Virus record (IMG/VR): IMGVR_UViG_3300037467_000377
Span: 1 to 25,818 of that record
Reading direction: 5' to 3' (one strand)
DNA from: a virus
Lineage: Duplodnaviria; Caudoviricetes
Length of the DNA: 25,818 nucleotides
Both the position numbers and the translations under genes were made by a program. A model generated the notes under the pieces. That model ran no database searches. It saw only the letters and a list, made by a program, of their open reading frames with translations, and was not told where the DNA came from. This document shows positions 2,804-13,937 of the stretch, one piece after another; within the stretch, counting starts at the first letter, position 1, and each line of letters starts with the position of its first letter.

Positions 2804-3508
2804 CTATTTCCCCCTGAACAGCGCGACCAGCGCCTTGATGAGAGCAACAAAAAACCCGCCTGTCGGGGCGGGCTGCGGAACGGGATCGGCTCCCGGCGCG
2901 GGACCGGGCTTTGGAATATCGGGCGGCGGCAAGGGCGATGCCTGCCCGTCGAATCTGATGGACGGGTCAAGCGCCTGCATCGCGAGGATCAGGCCAGCAC
3001 AGCCAAGCTGCTTATCGACAATGCTGGGGTCGAACTTGCCATCGGCAACATATTTGCCTTTGACGTATTGATCGGTGCCCGACCAGACATAGGGCGATGG
3101 AATGCCGCGATTGGCATAACCAAGGCCGTTATATTGTTCGAGCAAGGTCATGGTCCCGGCCGGCGACCAATCCTTCCACTTGCTGGCATAGGGAGGGCAG
3201 ACCGAAAGAGCATCGATCGCCGCATCTTCCCAATTCTTGAATGGCCCCCTGCCCTTGGGAACGTGAACCGAGACCTTATTCCAGGGATCGCCCTGCGCCA
3301 GACTGCGCGAGAAGTCCTGCGAGGATTCCCGCTGATGAATGACGGCAATCACGAACCAAGGCACGCCCGACTTGGCGGAGACGATGCTGTAACGCGGCTT
3401 TGCTGCGACAAGGCTTTTGGCGACGGCCTTCAGCTCAGAGCCGCGCGTGATCTTGGCTGCTTTCCATCGCTCGCCGTTCTTTTTAGTGAGCGCAGCAAGG
3501 TCCGCCAC
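2804..3508 (-). CDS. endolysin, lysozyme-like (COG5526-type)
   Basis: IAVIHQRESS (candidate catalytic Glu), YNGLGY, PSPYVWSGT.QY..GKYVADG, then a Pro-rich linker and amphipathic C-tail. Probable GTG start at 3508 (TAGTG overlap); the ORF track gives 3544. Confidence 0.85.
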   Translation of the reverse strand: MADLAALTKKNGERWKAAKITRGSELKAVAKSLVAAKPRYSIVSAKSGVPWFVIAVIHQRESSQDFSRSLAQGDPWNKVSVHVPKGRGPFKNWEDAAIDALSVCPPYASKWKDWSPAGTMTLLEQYNGLGYANRGIPSPYVWSGTDQYVKGKYVADGKFDPSIVDKQLGCAGLILAMQALDPSIRFDGQASPLPPPDIPKPGPAPGADPVPQPAPTGGFFVALIKALVALFRGK

Positions 3509-3681
3509 TACAGCAGAACCTTCAGACCGGATGCCAGCGAGCAAATGGCGCCGGTGCCCGCGAGCGAGAACCAGGTAACGGCCTCGAGGTCATATTCCTT
3601 GTGATGAATCCGGTAGTCGTTCAGCACAAAGAGGAGGATCGCCGCCCCGAAAAGGACGGCGCCGATGGCGAGGATGGACAT
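3508..3681 (-). CDS. small two-TM membrane protein (57 aa), candidate second holin/antiholin; not in ORF track
   Basis: MSILAIGAVLFGAAILLFVLNDYRIHHKEYDLEAVTWFSLAGTGAICSLASGLKVLL*. GGAGG RBS at 3688-3692, and its stop overlaps the endolysin GTG. Confidence 0.7.
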   Translation of the reverse strand: MSILAIGAVLFGAAILLFVLNDYRIHHKEYDLEAVTWFSLAGTGAICSLASGLKVLL

Positions 3682-5993: not shown

Positions 5994-6878
5994 TTACGCC
6001 CCCGCGAAGATGATGTAATTGCAGACGATGCCGGGCGGCAGGTTGTTGTGTGCTTCGCCGCCGCCTGCGTTGTTGACGGTGATGCCGGTCGAGTTCGCAA
6101 CAACACCAAAATTGCCGGCCGCATTCGGCGTCACGAAAGCTGTTGCAGCGCCAGCGCCGTTGTTGAGATTCAGAACGGCAAACGGCTGCGTTACGCTGTT
6201 GTATTGGAGCGAATGCGAGTGGCCCGGATCAGTGAGCGCATGATCGTGTGCAGCCAGCTGCGCTTCGGTTAGGGTGTGCGTTTCCGCGCCACCCGTTGCG
6301 CCGAGCGTGTCGCCGTTCCAACCGCCGGATTGATTAGTGATGCGGTTCGCGGACGTGCCGCCCATATCATCCTTACCGAAAGACGCACGACCGCGCTTAT
6401 CCGGCAAGTTGAAGGTAGTCGATCCATCACCCGTGCCGTGAGTCGTGCCGATGGCATCGAACAGCGCGGCGTAAGTCGTGCGCGATACAGCTTGGCCGTA
6501 TGCAAACAGCCAACCTGCCGGAGCGGTCGTTCCCCAGAAGTCAGTACCGGAGCCAATGGGAGGACCGCCCGAGATAAGGCCCTTCGCGCCAAACTCCGCG
6601 ACCTGAGAGCCGTTGACCGCAACGCCGATGCCGTTGGCGGTTTTAAAGAAGCCGAAGTTGGTTGCGCCGGTAAACGCAAGACCAGGAGCCGCAGCCGAAC
6701 CCTGCACCGCTTTGAACTGCCCGGTCATCGAAGCGATGCCGCTACGGAGAACCAGGCCATTAAGGGCCGCCTGCACGTCCTCTAAGGGCGCATTGTGCTG
6801 TGTGTCTTGAATCGTTGTGCCGTTTTCCGCGTGATAAACGGTTGGCAGCGAGTAATTCCCGCCACTATCAAAGGGCAT
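5994..6878 (-). CDS. tail fibre protein with phage tail-collar domain
   Basis: Collar signature PIGSGTDFWGTTAPAGWLFAYGQAVSRTTYAALF.AIGT..G.GDGSTTFNLPD.RGR and C-terminal AHNNLPP. ATG at 6878 behind GGAG; the ORF track starts at TTG 6890. Confidence 0.92.
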   Translation of the reverse strand: MPFDSGGNYSLPTVYHAENGTTIQDTQHNAPLEDVQAALNGLVLRSGIASMTGQFKAVQGSAAAPGLAFTGATNFGFFKTANGIGVAVNGSQVAEFGAKGLISGGPPIGSGTDFWGTTAPAGWLFAYGQAVSRTTYAALFDAIGTTHGTGDGSTTFNLPDKRGRASFGKDDMGGTSANRITNQSGGWNGDTLGATGGAETHTLTEAQLAAHDHALTDPGHSHSLQYNSVTQPFAVLNLNNGAGAATAFVTPNAAGNFGVVANSTGITVNNAGGGEAHNNLPPGIVCNYIIFAGA

Positions 6879-6887
6879 TAGCCTCTC

Positions 6888-6923
6888 CAAAAGAAAAGAG
6901 GCCCGGATCGCTCCGAGCCTCTT
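6888..6923 (-). terminator. intrinsic terminator closing the Cas7-like operon
   Basis: Minus strand AAGAGGCUCGGA-GCGA-UCCGGGCCUCUU (12-bp stem, GNRA loop) followed by UUCUUUU. Confidence 0.85.
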
Positions 6924-6927
6924 GTTA

Positions 6928-7060
6928 GCCTTCGTCGCCTCGCCTGCCTCACCGAGGCCTGCCCAGACCCGCCTTGATCAACGCGCCTCGCCTGGCCTGC
7001 CTAGACAATCCAGACCATGCGTTGCTAAGCGTTGGCTTGCCTTGCCTGCCGTTCCGTGCC
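6928..7060 (-). ncRNA. periodic GGY-NN array 2 (putative guide RNA tract)
   Basis: Minus strand: ggc ac gga ac ggc A ggc aa ggc aa gcc aa cgc tt agc aa cgc at ggt ct gga tt gtc ta ggc A ggc ca ggc ga ggc gc gtt ga tc aa ggc gg gtc tg ggc A ggc... It shows a 5-nt period with GGCAGGC phase breaks and degenerates toward the terminator. Expression as RNA is inferred. Confidence 0.75.
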
Positions 7061-7067
7061 TACTCGT

Positions 7068-7577
7068 TTACGCAGCTTCCGTTTTGCTCGGCGCCTTTAC
7101 GCTCTGCAATTCGGATGCAAGGCGCTCAATTGACTTTGTTGAACCCTCGACGTGCAGCAACGCTGCTTTGTATCGGTTCATCCAAGACAACAGAGCTGTA
7201 CCCGCTTGCCGACAATGCTCTGCGATGTGCTCAGGGTCATTGGGATCGGTAAGCACATAGCCACCGCCATCCTTTCGACCCGCCACAGGCGAGATCACCG
7301 CCGGCATTTCAGTCGTTTTCACGGTAACAGCGCCGGAACGGCCGACTTCCTCAACCGTGAAACTCACTCTTAAATCCTTGGCAAACGAGCGTGCCTGCCA
7401 AAGTTGATGCTCCTGTGCCGCCTTAGACTGGTCCCACTCGAACCAATCGTAAGCCGGATGATCCTTGCCCTTCTCTCGAACCTCTTTGAGAAAAAGGGCT
7501 GGATCGTACAGACCGTTATGACGACGCGAGAAGTCTTCAACGATCTGTTGCCGCAACTCTTTCGTGAAGCGTGACAT
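7068..7577 (-). CDS. accessory protein of the Cas7-like/array locus (169 aa)
   Basis: ATG 7577 behind AAAGGAG (7584-7590). Motif HPAYDWFEWDQSKAAQEHQLWQAR resembles a phage hypothetical family. Lies between the two arrays; function unknown. Confidence 0.85.
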   Translation of the reverse strand: MSRFTKELRQQIVEDFSRRHNGLYDPALFLKEVREKGKDHPAYDWFEWDQSKAAQEHQLWQARSFAKDLRVSFTVEEVGRSGAVTVKTTEMPAVISPVAGRKDGGGYVLTDPNDPEHIAEHCRQAGTALLSWMNRYKAALLHVEGSTKSIERLASELQSVKAPSKTEAA

Positions 7578-7598
7578 CAACATCTCCTTTGTTGTGAT

Positions 7599-7777
7599 GC
7601 CTGCCACGCCTCGCCAAGCCGTGACCCGTCCAGCGCCGCCATGACTGCGTTGACGCGCCGCAACTAGCCGTAACGGGACTCACCGTCCCGCGCCTAGCCC
7701 CGCCAGCCAAGCCTAACTCCGACGCTCCGTCCCATATCCCGCCGGGCCGTAACGCACCCCGCCTTGCCTGCCGTGCC
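7599..7777 (-). ncRNA. periodic GGY-NN array 1 (putative guide RNA tract, three units)
   Basis: Minus strand parses without slippage as triplet+NN. Unit 1 is 7768-7706 (12 NN), unit 2 is 7704-7647 (11 NN), unit 3 is 7645-7603 (8 NN), separated by single-nt breaks. Triplets are mostly GGC/GGT/GTC/GTT. Confidence 0.85.
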
Positions 7778-7790
7778 AAAAACGCCGCGA

Positions 7791-8546
7791 TCAGGCCGCG
7801 CGGCGCCTCACTTCCGCTTCGTAAAACTCCATTAAATCGACAGTGTCTTTGTCGGCGTATTCTGGACTGTCCAGAGCCGCCAATTGCTCGGCCCGGCCGT
7901 GATGCGCAACCAAATCGTTCCACTCCGCGTCATCCTCACCTTCGCCAAGAACTCGGAACGAACCGAATGCGCCCTTCCCCTTCTCCTGCCGGAAGTCACC
8001 GACACCGATCAGAACCCCGGCATTACAGAGCAGCGCGACAACCGCAGAGACGGAAAGTTGCGGCACGACGAAGTTGATATCCACTTCAGCGCCCCACCTC
8101 GGCAGATAGCACCGCGAGCGAATGTCAGGCGTCCGATTGATGTCCGCACTGCGCACCACGTCCATTCGGAGTTGCGGCGTGCCGTAAAGCGGCACGAAAT
8201 CACCGGGCATGAAAAGCAACCGCTGCGCAGAGCTTTTCGTCAGACCGGGAGTTTCCAGCGCGGCCGTTGCCATCGCAGCCTTCACCGCCACGACCCGCAA
8301 CCCGAGAGCCGTGGGGCCGGCCGGCAAGATTTCCGCGCTGTTGCGATATTCCTCAAGCGGATTGTGTTTGATCTTCGCCCGGTCGGCTTTGCCCTTCTTC
8401 TGGCCGCCGACCAGCAATTGCTCCTTTGCCTTGTTCGCCATCCTATTTTGGAACAACGGCGTTGTGCCGATGATCCGCAGCTTGACCGATGCTCGCTTGA
8501 GCGGTTGCACCGAGATTTCAGCAGTCTCTTGCTTCTTCGTAGCCAT
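7791..8546 (-). CDS. stand-alone Cas7/RAMP-like RNA-binding protein (Vipr-like)
   Basis: N-terminal strand VKLRIIGTTPL, central helix AVKAAMATAA, W.AEVDINF strand, and C-terminal Gly-rich loop LLCNAGVLIGVGDFRQEKGKGAFGSFRV, as in RAMP-superfamily RRM proteins. RBS GGAGA at 8553-8557. The fold call is from motif recognition only. Confidence 0.8.
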   Translation of the reverse strand: MATKKQETAEISVQPLKRASVKLRIIGTTPLFQNRMANKAKEQLLVGGQKKGKADRAKIKHNPLEEYRNSAEILPAGPTALGLRVVAVKAAMATAALETPGLTKSSAQRLLFMPGDFVPLYGTPQLRMDVVRSADINRTPDIRSRCYLPRWGAEVDINFVVPQLSVSAVVALLCNAGVLIGVGDFRQEKGKGAFGSFRVLGEGEDDAEWNDLVAHHGRAEQLAALDSPEYADKDTVDLMEFYEAEVRRRAA

Positions 8547-8560
8547 GTTCAGTCTCCATC

Positions 8561-8665
8561 GGCACCCGGCCTGCCAAGCCCGAGCGCATAGGGGTTCGTT
8601 TTCACGAACGCCGGGGCCGATGAAGCCTCGAAACGTTCGCGCTCAATCCCGTTGGCAGACGGGAA
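8561..8665 (-). promoter_or_regulatory. structured 5' leader of the Cas7-like gene
   Basis: Hairpin UCCCGU-CUGCCA-ACGGGA (8664-8647). Stem GAGCGCG/UGCGCUC (8644-8638/8588-8582) encloses a GUUCGU-GAAA-ACGAAC hairpin. A competing hairpin next to the RBS has loop UUGGCA. Confidence 0.55.
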
Positions 8666-8935
8666 TCAGTTTTTCGATAATTCGACCGACGCCGCAGCGT
8701 GTTGCCGCTGCCAGAAGTCATCGAAATCGCTAATGCACTTCCTCAACTGCGACACGAGATAGGCAATCTGGGTTGCCTAGATGGTGTCGCGTGATAGATC
8801 GTCCGCAACCTTGTCAGCGATACCAGAGAGGATCACCAACTCATCAATGCGGTTTTCCATATCCAGGGCCGCGCGGCCCCGGACAAACTGAGCATTTTTC
8901 AGTACCGTCTCAGGCATGCGAAGGACACTGCTCAT
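8666..8935 (-). pseudogene. small gene interrupted by an in-frame TAG (8777-8779), or a 52-aa CDS; not in ORF track
   Basis: ATG 8935 behind GAGG: MSSVLRMPETVLKNAQFVRGRAALDMENRIDELVILSGIADKVADDLSRDTI*ATQIAYLVSQLRKCISDFDDFWQRQHAAASVELSKN*. The frame stays open and helical-looking after the amber codon. Confidence 0.55.
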
Positions 8936-8942
8936 GGTGCCC

Positions 8943-9311
8943 TCAATTCAGGTCTTTTGGTGCAGGCTTCGCAGCGATTGCAGCAATATCGCGAAGCATC
9001 ACCGCTTCGCTCTCGCCGCACTCATCCGCGTAATCGACAATCCGGGCCATCGCCCGGCTGCGGGTATACTTGTCGATTGTCTTAAGCGATTTGATCTTCG
9101 CGATAATCTGGTCTTGCGCGACGTCGCACCGCTCAAGCTCGGCTTCGATAAGCTTCAGCGCGCTATCCTGACAGCGCGGCTGATTAATGATCGCGAGATA
9201 GCCGTAACGAGCGGCACCGTAGGCGTCATAAAGTGCCAGCAACCCGGCGGCATCGTCGGGCAGTGTTTTCGGTACCGATTTTACGATAAGGTCGGCAGCA
9301 GCCTGCGCCAT
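8943..9311 (-). CDS. hypothetical protein, first gene of the leftward accessory operon (122 aa)
   Basis: ATG 9311 (MAQAAADLIV...) behind AAGGGAG (9321-9327); the ORF track extends to 9359. Confidence 0.75.
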   Translation of the reverse strand: MAQAAADLIVKSVPKTLPDDAAGLLALYDAYGAARYGYLAIINQPRCQDSALKLIEAELERCDVAQDQIIAKIKSLKTIDKYTRSRAMARIVDYADECGESEAVMLRDIAAIAAKPAPKDLN

Positions 9312-9339
9312 GGTCTTCGACTCCCTTGGCAGTGGGTTA

Positions 9340-9421
9340 GGGTCGGTTAGGCGCTCCAACGCCTTTCCGGCCCGACGAATTCATGATATCCGTAATTATG
9401 ACGAAGTCAATACGGGATATC
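9340..9421 (-). promoter_or_regulatory. candidate sigma70-type promoter, operator-like inverted repeat and leader hairpin
   Basis: Minus strand TTGACT (9410-9405), 16 nt, TATCAT (9388-9383). Imperfect inverted repeat GATATCCGTA (9385-9394) / TACGGGATATC (9411-9421). Hairpin at 9340-9373 just downstream. Confidence 0.55.
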
Positions 9422-9637
9422 CCGAAAAAACGTGGTCGTGGACGACCGAAGACAACCGGCCGTGGCGAGGGGATACTTTTGCGCCTTCAGCCCGATTTGC
9501 TTGACCCCTTGGACGAGTGGCGAAAGACGCAAGACCCGGTTCCCAGCCGGCCAGAAGCGGTCAGGAGGGCCCTCACCGACTGGCTGACCAGCTTGGGGTT
9601 GATACCGCTAGACTCAGACCGGAAGGGCAAGCAATGA
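9383..9637 (+). CDS. ribbon-helix-helix (CopG/Arc/MetJ-like) transcriptional regulator
   Basis: KKRGRGRP basic arm, strand ILLRL, helix DLLDPLDEWR, and SRPEAVRRAL helix. Divergent from the accessory operon. The start may be ATG 9398. Confidence 0.85.
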   Translation: MISVIMTKSIRDIPKKRGRGRPKTTGRGEGILLRLQPDLLDPLDEWRKTQDPVPSRPEAVRRALTDWLTSLGLIPLDSDRKGKQ

Positions 9638-9665
9638 TCCCCGGCGTTTAAGGCTGGAGGAACAT

Positions 9666-9833
9666 ATGGCTGAACAAGTTTATCCGGATGGAGACTTCGC
9701 GAAGGCAGCGATCTCACTCGCTGAACAGTATTTGTTCGTTCAAGGCAAAAAGAAACGCGATCAGGTCAACGGTGAAGAGTATCTGAAGGCGGTTGCTCTT
9801 TCTGTTCGTGCTCTTCGTGGGCTTGACCCGTGA
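9666..9833 (+). CDS. small hypothetical protein (55 aa), not in ORF track
   Basis: GGAGG at 9656-9660, ATG 9666: MAEQVYPDGDFAKAAISLAEQYLFVQGKKKRDQVNGEEYLKAVALSVRALRGLDP*. Confidence 0.65.
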   Translation: MAEQVYPDGDFAKAAISLAEQYLFVQGKKKRDQVNGEEYLKAVALSVRALRGLDP

Positions 9834-10068
9834 CAAACGCATAATACTTCTGGGCCGCCTCGATTATGATCGAGGTGGCCATTCCGGTACGTTGAGCCAA
9901 TTCGATGCATTTCATACGCAGCTCTGTGTCGGTCATGATCCATCTCCGATGTTCTTCAGCTTCTTCCCTGCTCGCTTTTTCGTATCCGGGGCGAACTCGC
10001 CAGACCTTCTTGTCAATGTCGGTCCAAACGGGATGCTCCCATTTCATCAGCGTCCAGCCTTCGCTCAT
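9766..10068 (-). CDS. hypothetical protein (start 10068 or 9936)
   Basis: The C-terminal half MTDTELRMKCIELAQR...IIEAAQKYYAFVTG resembles small phage helical proteins. GGAG precedes ATG 9936. Overlaps 9666-9833 convergently by 68 nt. Confidence 0.5.
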   Translation of the reverse strand: MSEGWTLMKWEHPVWTDIDKKVWRVRPGYEKASREEAEEHRRWIMTDTELRMKCIELAQRTGMATSIIIEAAQKYYAFVTGQAHEEHEQKEQPPSDTLHR

Positions 10069-10386
10069 ATCTGCCCCCGAGGTTGGCCGTGGATGAACTG
10101 CTGAACGCGACCGCCGCATCCAATCTGGTCAGCGCATCGATATTGTCTGCGCTAATGGTCGCGCTTCGTGAAAAGGGCATTCTCACGCAAGATGAGGTTC
10201 GTGAGGTTTACGAACGTTCGCTTCTCTCGATTGAGACTGCCCAGACCCAGTCACCCCACTCTGCCGATCTATTTGAGGCCGCTCGCGAGCTGATCGAAGA
10301 ACATCTGCGGGCTGAGCGGCCAGCGAGTGGACCGATTTGATGACGCTGAGATATTCCTTGCCAGTCATATCTGCCTCTGAGGTTGG
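10065..10386. repeat. 22-bp direct repeat pair, 300 nt apart (10065-10086, 10365-10386)
   Basis: TCATATCTGCCCCCGAGGTTGG versus TCATATCTGCCTCTGAGGTTGG (2 mismatches). Confidence 0.85.
10089..10340 (+). CDS. small helical hypothetical protein (moron)
   Basis: GAGG at 10079-10082 then GTG 10089. Contains ILSALMVALREKGILTQDEVREVYERSL. Confidence 0.75.
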   Translation: MDELLNATAASNLVSASILSALMVALREKGILTQDEVREVYERSLLSIETAQTQSPHSADLFEAARELIEEHLRAERPASGPI

Positions 10387-10653
10387 ATGATGAAATCTCG
10401 CCTCTACCAATGGGCGATGCGACTCATTCAGATTGGGCTGATCGGACTTGGCATCCTTGCCGAATACAATTTCTCCCAAGAAACCGGAGAAAAACCGCGG
10501 CCGGCAATCGGAATATTGTTTGGCGTTATTTTGGCCGCAGCCTTCACCGGCCTTGTCCTCTTCGTCCAGAACACTTCAACGCGATTGAAGCTGTGGCGCC
10601 AACGCCGGCTCCATCAGCAACAATTGGCGCGCGACACGCTCGACCCCAGGTGA
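10387..10653 (+). CDS. two-TM inner-membrane protein, candidate superinfection exclusion
   Basis: Two hydrophobic segments (LIQIGLIGLGILA; AIGILFGVILAAAFTGLVLFV). GAGG RBS lies within the repeat. Convergent with the last ejection gene, like P22 sieA. Function is inferred from position. Confidence 0.65.
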   Translation: MMKSRLYQWAMRLIQIGLIGLGILAEYNFSQETGEKPRPAIGILFGVILAAAFTGLVLFVQNTSTRLKLWRQRRLHQQQLARDTLDPR

Positions 10654-12237
10654 AGCGGCCTGCGGGAATTTCGAGTTACTGAGATACCACTGCATCGGAC
10701 GGGACATAAGAACGCGACCGAAAGCGCCGGGGGCCGCCGCGCCCGCAACCGCGCCCGCTGCCCCGCCGACGCCACCAGTCAAGAACCCGCCTCCTCCGCC
10801 TCCAATAGCTGCGGAAATCGCAGTGATGAGTTGTCGCTGAGCCGTACCGGAGTTGGGCAGCGGTGCCATCACGCCAGAACCGGCGCGGGAAAGTTCTGAA
10901 AATTGCCCCTGTCCCCTAGCATAAGCTCCACGGTTCTCCGCTGAAGCGGCGTTACGAAGATTAGCCGGCACAATCTGCCCCTCAGCGGTCGCCTCACCGG
11001 CACGGCTTGCCGCCTTCTCAATGGTCTTCTGTGCGCTATACTGCCGCCGCGCCTCGCGCCACAACTCGGCATCTCCAGATGTGGCAGGGATAGACCGCTC
11101 CATCGCCTTATCCAGCGCGTTGCGGGTGTCGCGCAAAGCCTCGGACAATGAAGGGTCGCTATTGCGAAGGCTATTGGCTTGGCTCGAAAGCCGCGACCGC
11201 ATCTCCTGATACATAGGGCCGGGCATCTGACCCGCATTCACATGCGGAACAATATCGTCAATGTAACCTTGAATCATCGCTCGCTGTTGAGATTCAGGCA
11301 CGTTGCGATAATTGCGAACAGCGCGCGTCAGATCGGTGATGAACTGGTTATCTGGAATGAGGTTGTTTCGAGCGGACAAATCCCGGAATTGGTCACCAAG
11401 TCTTTGGCTGTTTTCTGCCAACACTTCAGGAGCCGCGTTCGGCCCTGCGCCAGCTCGGCGCATTGCGGCCTCAGTAAATTGGCGCTGGCCCTCCTGCTGA
11501 ACGCGCGAAGCCGATCCGCCCGCGCCAGGAGCATCACCCAGGATCGATTCCGCATACTGCAGTGTTTTGGAGCCAGTCTTTTGGCCGGCCGTAAGGCTCG
11601 TCACACCTTCTTTGTTGAGGATATCGACCAACCGCTGCCGCTCGGAGGAAATGCCAATTGGCGTGGCGATTTTCTGGAGACCGCCCGGCAACCCGCCGCC
11701 AACTATAGCGCCGCCGACACGAGCAAATGGCTCGGCCGCCGTGCCTTCTGTCAGTTGACCCGCGCCCTCGCTGGCGATACCACCCAACATCGCTTGCGCC
11801 ACCTTGCGCACAGCGCCACCGGGACCTGATATAACGGCGGGCGCAAACTCGCCCACGGTTTCCGCGTATTTACCGGCCGTGGTTTGGGGCTTGTAGAACT
11901 CGCCGGTAACGCTCTCGATGCCTTTCTGAACGGCACCCGAGCCGATCTTGCTCGGCGCATCGTAAATCTTCGTGTCAATCTCTGGCTGTCCGATGGCACG
12001 TAGGATTGGGTTCGATACATACTTATCCCGCGCTAGCCCGGCCAGCCTGCCTAGATCGCCAGGCAAGCCAACCAGACCCGCAACTCCTTTGCCGACACCC
12101 GCCGCTGCCGACTTCAACACATCGGCCGTTTGAGTAGTGCCTCCGCCGTTCAATTGAACGGCCTTGAGCGCGGTCGCGCTATCAGGCGCTTCCACCTCGA
12201 AAGATCGGCCATTGGCTTCAATCTCGAATGTCTGCAT
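10576..12237 (-). CDS. internal virion / DNA ejection protein
   Basis: 553 aa, Ala/Gly-rich helical protein with hydrophobic Gly-rich segments and a PLPNSGTAQR motif. Last of three ejection-type genes, TAATG-coupled. Confidence 0.75.
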   Translation of the reverse strand: MQTFEIEANGRSFEVEAPDSATALKAVQLNGGGTTQTADVLKSAAAGVGKGVAGLVGLPGDLGRLAGLARDKYVSNPILRAIGQPEIDTKIYDAPSKIGSGAVQKGIESVTGEFYKPQTTAGKYAETVGEFAPAVISGPGGAVRKVAQAMLGGIASEGAGQLTEGTAAEPFARVGGAIVGGGLPGGLQKIATPIGISSERQRLVDILNKEGVTSLTAGQKTGSKTLQYAESILGDAPGAGGSASRVQQEGQRQFTEAAMRRAGAGPNAAPEVLAENSQRLGDQFRDLSARNNLIPDNQFITDLTRAVRNYRNVPESQQRAMIQGYIDDIVPHVNAGQMPGPMYQEMRSRLSSQANSLRNSDPSLSEALRDTRNALDKAMERSIPATSGDAELWREARRQYSAQKTIEKAASRAGEATAEGQIVPANLRNAASAENRGAYARGQGQFSELSRAGSGVMAPLPNSGTAQRQLITAISAAIGGGGGGFLTGGVGGAAGAVAGAAAPGAFGRVLMSRPMQWYLSNSKFPQAASPGVERVARQLLLMEPALAPQLQSR

Positions 12238-13937
12238 TATTTTTTCTCACGAATGCGGACGCCACCACCCATATCCTGCCAACCATCAACGTTAGCAGGC
12301 TTTGCCGCAGCCGAGAGGGCGCTCGCTTTCTCGGCCAAATCGCCAAATACGTTTCGTTGAGATAGCTCTTTTCTCCATTGGCGCTCAAATTTTTCGTAGG
12401 GAATTTTGTTTTCGCGCGCTTCCGCCCACTTATCAGCCCGCTCAATAGACAACTGGGCTTCTCGCGCTTTAGCCTCAAGCAGAATTTGGTTGGCCTCTGG
12501 GCGATTTGCCAAACTCGGCTGAATGCGAGTGATAAAATCGCGGTCAGTGTTGGAAAAGTTGTTCGCCGGCATCCCACCTTCGCCGCCGATTGACCCAAGC
12601 GTGAATTTATTGATGAGAGCCGTAGCCGCTTCCGCCGTTGCAGGTAGCGCCGGATTGATACGAATCATGGCCGGGTCGAGTCCAACCGACTGCATCCAAG
12701 AACCTATCGTTGCACCAGTCTGAGCGAGCTTACCTGTTTGAATGTCCGTCAAAAGGCGATTCAACAGACCAATGTTTTGAATATCCGTCGCCGCCTTATC
12801 GCCGCTGGCTATGACAGAAAGGGCGCGCTTGCCCATTCCTTGGCCATATTCCTTTTCGAACTCATCGGGGGCACGTTGATCAATCGTCGTGACGGGCTTG
12901 CCGGCCTCTTTTAGTTTTGTCTGATATTCAAGCAGACCAAGCGGCGCTTCGCCTCGCCCCTTGCGTTCAGCATTGATCGCAGCAAGCTCTCTCATATCAT
13001 TCGTGGGAACCGAGTCCTTAAGCTGGTTCTGCAACAGGATACCCAGCACCTTCTTCGTACCGTCAGACACATAGGGCGAGGCCATGCCACGGATGAGTGC
13101 CGGATTGAGGGCGGGCTGCTGGGCTTGCGCGACTTGTACTGGAGCCTGCGTCGGCTGTGCCTGCGCATTTCCACCAGGAGTCGGTAAGCCTCGCGCGATG
13201 CTGCCAACCTTGTTTGCATATCCAGGATCACTGGCGTAGCCACTCGCCCCTAATGCCGCGATTTGGCTTTCAAGGTCCGGTGCCTGCTTCAGCGCCGCAT
13301 AGCGCGGATTGCGATTGATGAAATCAGCATAATCATTCACGCTATCGGCCGGCGAAGCATACGCGCGAAAGCTGTCGGTCGTTTGCACCGGTTGTCCGTT
13401 CACAACTTCACTGGTTGGCAAGACATTGCCGCCCGGCTGGCCATGTGATTTGATGCCGAACAAATTCCCGCCCGGCGCAGACTTGCCCCAACCACTCTCA
13501 ACGGCGGCCTGCGCGATGATGACGCGAGGATCTACGCCCGTTTTCGCGGAGGCTTCCTGAGCGAGCGGCATTAGGCCAGTAACAAAGTCTTCCTTGCCTA
13601 CCGGAATCTTAGTCTGTCCCATCGGAGCGGAGACGGGGGGGATACCAGCCGCCGGCTCGGCCGCAGTTGAGGCGGCTGGCGCAGGAACGGATTGCCCCAT
13701 CATCGCCGCGATAAGCTTATTGTTGGTTTCTTCATTGGCGCGCGAAGCTTCATTCGCCTCGCGAGCCAGCAAACCGCCCGACATAGCCTGCGCAACACGA
13801 GCTGCGCCCTGTGTCCAGTGCTTCACAGGGTCATAAGACGAACCTGCCTGCATCATCGATTGCGCGACTTTGCGCTGAGATGCGATTTCTTCCGGCGTCA
13901 GTTGCGCGCCGCCACTTCCCCAAATGAAGCCGGCCAT
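12237..13937 (-). CDS. internal virion protein with GH73 (FlgJ/glucosaminidase-like) peptidoglycan hydrolase domain
   Basis: IAQAAVESGWG, NLFGIK, FRAYAS..DS..DY..FI..NPRY, GYASDPGYANK. Confidence 0.9.
   Translation of the reverse strand: MAGFIWGSGGAQLTPEEIASQRKVAQSMMQAGSSYDPVKHWTQGAARVAQAMSGGLLAREANEASRANEETNNKLIAAMMGQSVPAPAASTAAEPAAGIPPVSAPMGQTKIPVGKEDFVTGLMPLAQEASAKTGVDPRVIIAQAAVESGWGKSAPGGNLFGIKSHGQPGGNVLPTSEVVNGQPVQTTDSFRAYASPADSVNDYADFINRNPRYAALKQAPDLESQIAALGASGYASDPGYANKVGSIARGLPTPGGNAQAQPTQAPVQVAQAQQPALNPALIRGMASPYVSDGTKKVLGILLQNQLKDSVPTNDMRELAAINAERKGRGEAPLGLLEYQTKLKEAGKPVTTIDQRAPDEFEKEYGQGMGKRALSVIASGDKAATDIQNIGLLNRLLTDIQTGKLAQTGATIGSWMQSVGLDPAMIRINPALPATAEAATALINKFTLGSIGGEGGMPANNFSNTDRDFITRIQPSLANRPEANQILLEAKAREAQLSIERADKWAEARENKIPYEKFERQWRKELSQRNVFGDLAEKASALSAAAKPANVDGWQDMGGGVRIREKK

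Follow-up and report, generated by a model that had tools for sequence, protein, structure and literature searches.

VIPR systems form a family described in 2026 preprints (10.64898/2026.04.26.720920), whose accessible text provides the following background. The Vipr protein coats an RNA whose NN pairs read DNA by skipping every third base, usually the wobble position, and this binding represses transcription on either strand with no PAM (10.64898/2026.04.26.720920). Natural targets were accepted in that work at a cut-off of 80%, and no self match above it is reported there for three VIPR sets. Assembly of Vipr along the RNA proceeds from 3' to 5' (10.64898/2026.04.26.720927), and guides directed against the guides of other phages have a poorer match to their own locus (10.64898/2026.10.15.759431). 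The three preprints are designated below by their last six digits; data on mismatch tolerance were not found in the accessible parts of 720920, 720927 and 759431. The other system of concern is the GH73 family of hydrolases. Its signature is named YATD in the accessible text of one source (PMC9108991) and given as YA(S/T)D in that of another, where AtlE carries Ser and the replacement of Ser/Thr by Ala lowers activity (PMC7170848).

The DNA analysed here, referred to as the window, is the whole 25.8-kb contig (25,818 nucleotides) of a soil phage whose terminase, portal, capsid, ejection and tail genes lie on the minus strand. As far as the accessible text allows comparison, its locus resembles the staggered VIPRs of 720920 by a RAMP-fold vipr with one accessory gene in a phage and by GGY/NN pentamers. 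It resembles the VIPRs of that work in general by a 1-nt skip on the wobble, a phase shift between units and a self match below 80%. The targets reported there are satellites, lysis-lysogeny regulators and other VIPRs, whereas here a motif of an enzyme encoded by the carrier itself is concerned. With the SUSP1-family phages (759431, accessible text) the locus shares a self match lower than the match to rival relatives, read there as avoidance of autoimmunity, and targets lying on codons of conserved enzyme residues. The spared self is non-coding guide DNA in 759431, unlike the coding signature motif found here, changed from Thr to Ser. Coding targets are also said there to be unable to escape, whereas the sister prophage L015 described below has synonymous Ser/Leu/Arg swaps at codon positions 1-2. 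VIPR itself, the wobble alignment, enzyme-motif targets and lower self matches are already in print in the accessible portions of these sources. Guides directed at kin through a virion gene family that the carrier shares, together with an altered self allele, were not found in the literature as accessible; the supplementary target lists (data S3) may include targets of this clade.

The VIPR locus and its guide array

The features of the locus and of the gene matched by its second guide unit are collected in Table 1. A profile built from 33 relatives of vipr retrieved a sole PDB sequence match, the SUSP1 Vipr (36pp), with an E value of 4.7e-4 over the G-loop. The single-sequence search gave a best E value of only 0.14, and when this protein alone served as query for related loci, only 3 distant matches were obtained. 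The structure model of Vipr reached a pLDDT of 85.8 and its top fold matches were chains of type III Csm complexes (E ~1e-4); the fold obtained from the single sequence had a pLDDT of 34. The G-loop, G177-G195, is invariant. The locus is a VIPR: as judged from sequence and model, its Vipr is homologous to known Viprs and has the predicted RAMP fold and G-loop.

Table 1. Coordinates of the VIPR locus and of the GH73 gene in the window.
Feature	Position	Strand	Description
Second GGY/NN array	6925-7060	-	More degenerate; then terminator-like hairpin (6923-6896)
Accessory (vap-like) gene	7068-7583	-	phrog_15946 (E 7e-7)
Guide unit 3	7602-7645	-	8 NN
Guide unit 2	7646-7704	-	11 GGY/NN pentamers (7650-7704) and 4-nt junction
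Guide unit 1	7705-7768	-	12 NN
vipr gene	7791-8546	-	Predicted RAMP-fold effector, 251 aa; phrog_4652
GH73 gene	12237-13937	-	566-aa GH73 peptidoglycan-hydrolase protein; PF01832 at residues 124-249 (E 2e-29)
Self near-match	13209-13241	-	GYASDPGYANK, residues 233-243, within the GH73 domain

The vap-like gene probably starts at the ATG at 7583, preceded by GGAG, and its homologue adjoins vipr in most related loci. Both genes are intact open reading frames and form a minimal two-gene locus within the virion region of the phage, in keeping with the definition of a VIPR locus. Neither a CRISPR array nor cas genes were detected at the locus, the repeat families shown include no CRISPR-like one, and no Rfam family reached the gathering score in 6000-11000. 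The nearest Viprs in named genomes (74-82%) belong mostly to Rhizobiales and other alphaproteobacteria; the host of the carrier therefore likely comes from these groups.

Several observations concern the surroundings of the locus. The vipr leader (8545-8630, minus strand) would form a long branched hairpin reaching the ribosome site (z -3.7), and no Rfam match was obtained for it. A 2951-base contig, present at high depth in all three runs considered below, matches only 8551-8625 of the window; the leader element is therefore also present elsewhere. In the window (5994-8546) and in L010, L012, L015, L016, L100, L103 and L104, the VIPR module directly precedes a tail-collar gene, and this shared position despite differing other genes points to a preferred insertion slot. 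The small genes at 8943-10682, between vipr and the ejection gene, resemble an inserted accessory block and include a ribbon-helix-helix gene on the plus strand (9383-9637). Guide-like units in L009 (5625-5718, minus strand) and L011 (5783-5852, minus strand), some 5 kb away from vipr and on the other strand, may be solo guides.

VIPR guides are recognized by tandem GGY/NN pentamers, 9-16 per guide; with 12, 11 and 8 pentamers, the array of the window was assigned to this type. The NN pairs vary among the 552 parsed guides of relatives. Those of unit 2, which starts at 7704 on the minus strand, read GG TA GC AC GA CC AC TA GC GC AA and correspond to codon positions 1+2 of GYATDPTYAA(K/N), a motif of GH73 hydrolases. 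Five exact 22/22 sites for unit 2 were retrieved from IMG/VR, all of them in frame in GH73 genes, as expected of a 1-nt skip with the skipped base at the wobble position; other skip lengths were compared within the window. The best self matches of unit 1 (15/24) and unit 3 (11/16) are at chance level, pentamers 2-11 of unit 1 have no exact match in IMG/VR, and the 3.4 Mb of fetched loci yielded no convincing target for units 1, 3 and 4. Among the 552 guides, unit 2 recurs in no other carrier (best 13/22), and PF01832 occurs in 0/5 Vipr-bearing virus records.

A parse of unit 2 into 12 pentamers was rejected, as its terminal 'AG' belongs to the 4-nt junction of a putatively staggered array. Junctions of this 'AG' type terminate most units in related loci, and 4-nt junctions agree with the staggered array form as worded in the accessible legend of fig. 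S18 in 720920. No structured 3' tail is evident between guide units. The scaffold of unit 2 is irregular: 6/11 triplets are canonical GGY, which places it among the lowest 18 of 161 guides in a clade whose median is 0.75. The commonest variant triplets across the clade are GTC, GTT and GGA. Taken alone, unit 2 is predicted to fold as a hairpin (z -2.6) that the non-canonical triplets help to form and that could limit loading.

The GH73 virion gene and its match to unit 2

The gene at 12237-13937 lies in the virion gene block between those of a phrog_6121 virion protein and a phrog_26400 DNA ejection protein, and Sulfitobacter phage NYA-2014a has the same gene order following its S74 gene. From this context, its product is likely an ejected virion protein. 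The GH73 domain is recognized by the invariant E147 and E177, the candidate catalytic Glu residues, and by the motif YASD. The first-pass annotation had named the product a virion muramidase; GH73 is a glucosaminidase/FlgJ-type family. The domain and motif are those of GH73 (PF01832; FlgJ, AtlA, AtlE), and Ser is natural in AtlE according to the accessible text of PMC7170848. Unlike in FlgJ, AtlA and AtlE, the domain belongs to a 566-aa protein in a virion block, and Ser is found in only about 1% of sampled viral motifs and in 0/129 homologues. A separate 246-aa open reading frame (2804-3544, minus strand) precedes holin-like small genes. It has no Pfam or PHROG match and a 60% homologue in L285, and it may be the true endolysin.

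The near-match to unit 2 claimed in the first-pass annotation was recomputed with the same result. The codons GGC TAC GCC AGT GAT CCT GGA TAT GCA AAC AAG agree with the guide at 8/11 units and 17/22 nt, and the mismatches fall on unit 4 (AC/AG, Thr to Ser), unit 7 (AC/GG) and unit 10 (GC/AA), so that the longest perfect run is 3 units. This site is the best 1-nt-skip match in the window (runner-up 15); a 0-skip site elsewhere in the window also scores 17, and the self match becomes 17/24 when 12 units are counted. Upon shuffling of the unit order, at least 17 nt were matched within the window in 63/2000 cases with 11 units and in 340/2000 with 12 units; 8 whole units were reached in 3/3000 shuffles. 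The score of 17/22 by itself is only modestly unusual. The match is regarded as non-random because it coincides, in frame, with the signature motif of GH73.

The self site is identical, with no other letters, in the contigs of 3/3 runs from 3 studies, each run being possibly the source of this DNA. An assembly error behind the Ser is unlikely, given this identity in the three runs. No better-matching allele co-occurred in them at 80% likeness. Since the motif allows Ser or Thr while Ala lowers activity, Ser would constitute a cheap exit from the guide.

Alleles of relatives and the sister prophage L015

Homologues of the GH73 protein were collected as the best 120 of 323 matches, comprising the window's own, 113 others with the motif and 6 without PF01832. 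Among the 112 Gly-starting homologues of these listed matches, 10 score 21/22 against unit 2 and none 22; the closest full-length orthologue listed, P0002 (46%), is one that scores 21/22. A tree of 126 homologues was built from the sequence upstream of the motif, the motif being excluded. It places the carrier in a clade of 25 (support 0.976), of which the carrier scores lowest: the rest range over 18-21, one of them at 17-18. All of the 30 nearest homologues on the tree have best-case scores above 17, and 15 score at least 20; in the wider family, a best-case score of 17 or less is found in 40/126 homologues. For 160 GH73 loci compared as DNA, scores range from 15 to 21; 8 loci reach 21 and 34/160 remain at 17 or less. 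Fifteen of these loci are syntenic, and three of the fifteen (L196, L197 and L262) reach 21/22 with no vipr or vap match in the fetched flanks. Neither gene was found in the fetched flanks of any of the 160 loci, many of these flanks being short.

A search of 401 order-level genomes for unit 2 sites with no more than 2 mismatches gave 2 genomes (control 1). The site of the first lies in a syntenic prophage of a Rhizobiales-order genome and matches at 21/22; that of the second lies in a partial homologue of the carrier's GH73 virion gene. A perfect orthologue for unit 2 was found in 0/112 listed proteins, 0/160 loci and 0/401 genomes. The 5 perfect IMG/VR sites occur in unrelated contigs that have nothing beyond the GH73 domain in common with the window; the genes in the two examined encode free-standing lysins of 152 aa, with an Rz-like spanin next to one of them. 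All 120/120 sampled GH73 sites score 17-21, for a search pattern that fixes at least 15 of the 22 letters. The objection that no relatives match better fails, because kin alleles reach 21/22. The better-matching alleles that the first-pass annotation had proposed to look for are thus found, in P0002 and in syntenic phages, with the carrier lowest of 25.

The usual conservation of the Thr, also asserted at first pass, is borne out: Thr occupies this position in 129/129 homologues (113 listed and 16 further), though the queries carried Ser, and loci seeded by a Thr-containing pattern were left out of the count. Ser236 is the sole departure of the carrier at 30 columns invariant in the 113 homologues. 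At the other two mismatched positions, Gly at motif position 7 occurs in 1/112 and Asn at position 10 in 7/112 of the listed matches. The AGY-Ser form was retrieved from IMG/VR in 1 stretch, on a contig without a vipr match within 8 kb; L289 likewise bears Ser with no vipr match within 8 kb. TCN-Ser was found in 1/120 sites sampled from about 1800 in IMG/VR, and a relaxed motif gave 2 matches in 401 family-level genomes, both with Thr. Six of the 30 invariant columns fall inside the footprint of the guide; 8/114 sequences have some singleton departure, one other of which lies inside the footprint. A locally faster divergence over the footprint was considered and discarded (rank 19/140 windows, not outstanding). 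As far as sequence comparison goes, the carrier's Ser amounts to one event against a background near 1%, which is suggestive and not proof.

The sister prophage L015 (Vipr 81%) carries guides at 11379-11477 and 11650-11697 directed at neighbouring codons of the tail-collar gene, which lies 200 bases further downstream. The targeted site occurs in 8 copies in 351 genus-level genomes, 1 in a VIPR carrier and 7 in non-carriers, whose upstream 1.5 kb contain no vipr, vap or array. The match of guide B is 18/18 in 3/7 non-carriers, and that of guide A 18/18 in 1/7 and 17/18 in 3, against 16/18 and 15/18 for the tail-collar gene of L015 itself. In 3/4 mismatched units the self difference is synonymous (Arg AGA, Ser AGC, Leu TTG). 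Among the 7 non-carriers AGA is found in 0, AGC in 3 and TTG in 1; because AGC and TTG also occur in non-carriers, the recoding of L015 is only partly carrier-specific. L015 is a cleaner test case than the window.

The self matches of the near Vipr clade were surveyed with 161 distinct guides from 33/41 loci, the window included; this subset was picked after a first survey, and its loci are not independent. No perfect self match was observed (0/161). Self matches at p<=0.01 were found for 6 guides (1.6 expected) and at p<=0.05 for 16 (8 expected; binomial ~0.006), and 13/16 of the strong matches lie in frame in ORFs of at least 250 aa versus 24/96 of the weak ones (Fisher 3e-5). Eleven such ORFs were scanned and 7 match tail, head or virion-type families, the loci lying amid structural genes anyway. 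A cruder first survey of a wider Vipr set had detected no excess of self matches (5/211 at p<=1/41, about 5 expected). Self matches of at least 80% are shown by 12/161 guides of the clade, unlike the three sets of 720920, for which none is reported in the accessible text. Guide 10815 of L104 matches its own site 5572 at 18/20 and guide 11275 of L102 reaches 19/22, both above the cut-off of the preprints; either self is already spared by 1-2 mismatched units, or the two guides serve self-regulation.

Competing explanations and the proposed course of events

Unit 2 probably targets the virion hydrolase gene of kin phages, the carrier's own mismatched copy being spared. The first-pass annotation had proposed a guide aimed at the orthologue of rivals with a diverged self copy; the better kin alleles and the pattern of L015 agree with it, but no perfect orthologue was found in the proteins, loci and genomes searched. 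The actual target might instead be the GH73 lysin of an unrelated phage, with a self match that is a by-product of the family-wide motif and involves no selection. All 5 perfect sites, two of them in small lysins, are located in such phages, and any GH73 gene scores 17-21. This explanation is rather unlikely: nothing ties the perfect-site contigs to the likely host of the carrier, syntenic kin and Rhizobiales-order prophages bear 20-21/22 sites, and the rare Ser and the kin-matching guides of L015 would be left unexplained. A chromosomal flgJ-type gene of the host, the motif of which is shared by FlgJ proteins (P0136), is practically out of the question as a target. PF01832 is present in 0/5 genomes bearing the closest Viprs, and the only 2/401 order-level genomes with a site at 2 mismatches or fewer contain the syntenic prophage and the partial virion-gene homologue mentioned above; the candidate was rejected on these scans.

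Unit 2 could also be a decayed or folded-shut relic, possibly directed against an ancestral allele, next to which the self site drifted. Decay of this sort would fit the 5/11 non-GGY triplets, the predicted hairpin and the lack of targets found for units 1, 3 and 4, and substitutions of GGY ended silencing in SUSP1 according to the text of 720920 and the legend of its fig. S12. A relic is unlikely, however, in view of the 11 NN pairs, which still spell a natural peptide found exact in 5 contigs, whereas drift would strike NN and scaffold alike; moreover GTC, GTT and GGA are the commonest clade variants and vipr and vap are intact. The guide could also bind the self site weakly and thereby dampen or time its own late operon, as the first-pass annotation had offered in the alternative. 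The self site is indeed the best in the window, some clade guides match self at 86-90%, and REP sites down to 0.72 identity are counted in the accessible text of 759431. This proposal nevertheless receives little support and is very unlikely, as kin fit unit 2 better than self does and the other units have no self match. The 77% of the self site is below the natural-target cut-off that no self match passed in the three VIPR sets, as accessible in 720920. No more than 3 units in a row are matched, and both letters disagree at unit 10, which lies close to the 3' end, the starting point of SUSP1 assembly in the accessible account of 720927.

If unit 2 targets kin phages, its RNA would be made and loaded on Vipr, and the guide would pair with the template strand of the late gene of the rival and block late transcription, by analogy with the described systems. 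A rival among the related alphaproteobacterial phages would then produce fewer infective particles, at co-infection or while resident as a prophage. In the carrier, the evenly spaced mismatches at units 4, 7 and 10 would leave runs of at most 3 units, with both letters of unit 10 mismatched near the 3' end. Selection against self-silencing may keep the guide and the carrier's own gene apart. It is quite possible, without being favored, that the carrier gene moved away from the guide, a gene-side escape through the Thr to Ser change, which GH73 enzymes tolerate; that the guide was kept since the gene already differed is an alternative within kin targeting.

VIPR has no PAM, and on self-avoidance the accessible text of the preprints reports only lower self matches. 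The locus bears on the claim that wobble-skipping denies coding targets any escape, since the carriers have natural changes at codon positions 1-2 by which the protein is altered little or not at all. It also offers a natural graded series for one guide, with 17, 18, 21 and 22 of 22, which would measure mismatch tolerance. Natural 18/22 sites are present in Rhizobium phage RHph_Y1_10 and Sulfitobacter phage NYA-2014a, 21/22 sites in L197 and L279, and a 22/22 site in L002. A broader reading can be put forward tentatively: in this clade of alphaproteobacterial phages, VIPR may be a kin-exclusion weapon directed against essential virion genes of their own family, the carriers having recoded these genes to survive. 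The exits would comprise Ser/Leu/Arg codon-family swaps and, in the signature motif, the replacement of Thr by Ser. If this were true, VIPR would push the alleles of sibling phages apart into self and non-self, and escape would be open to its targets.
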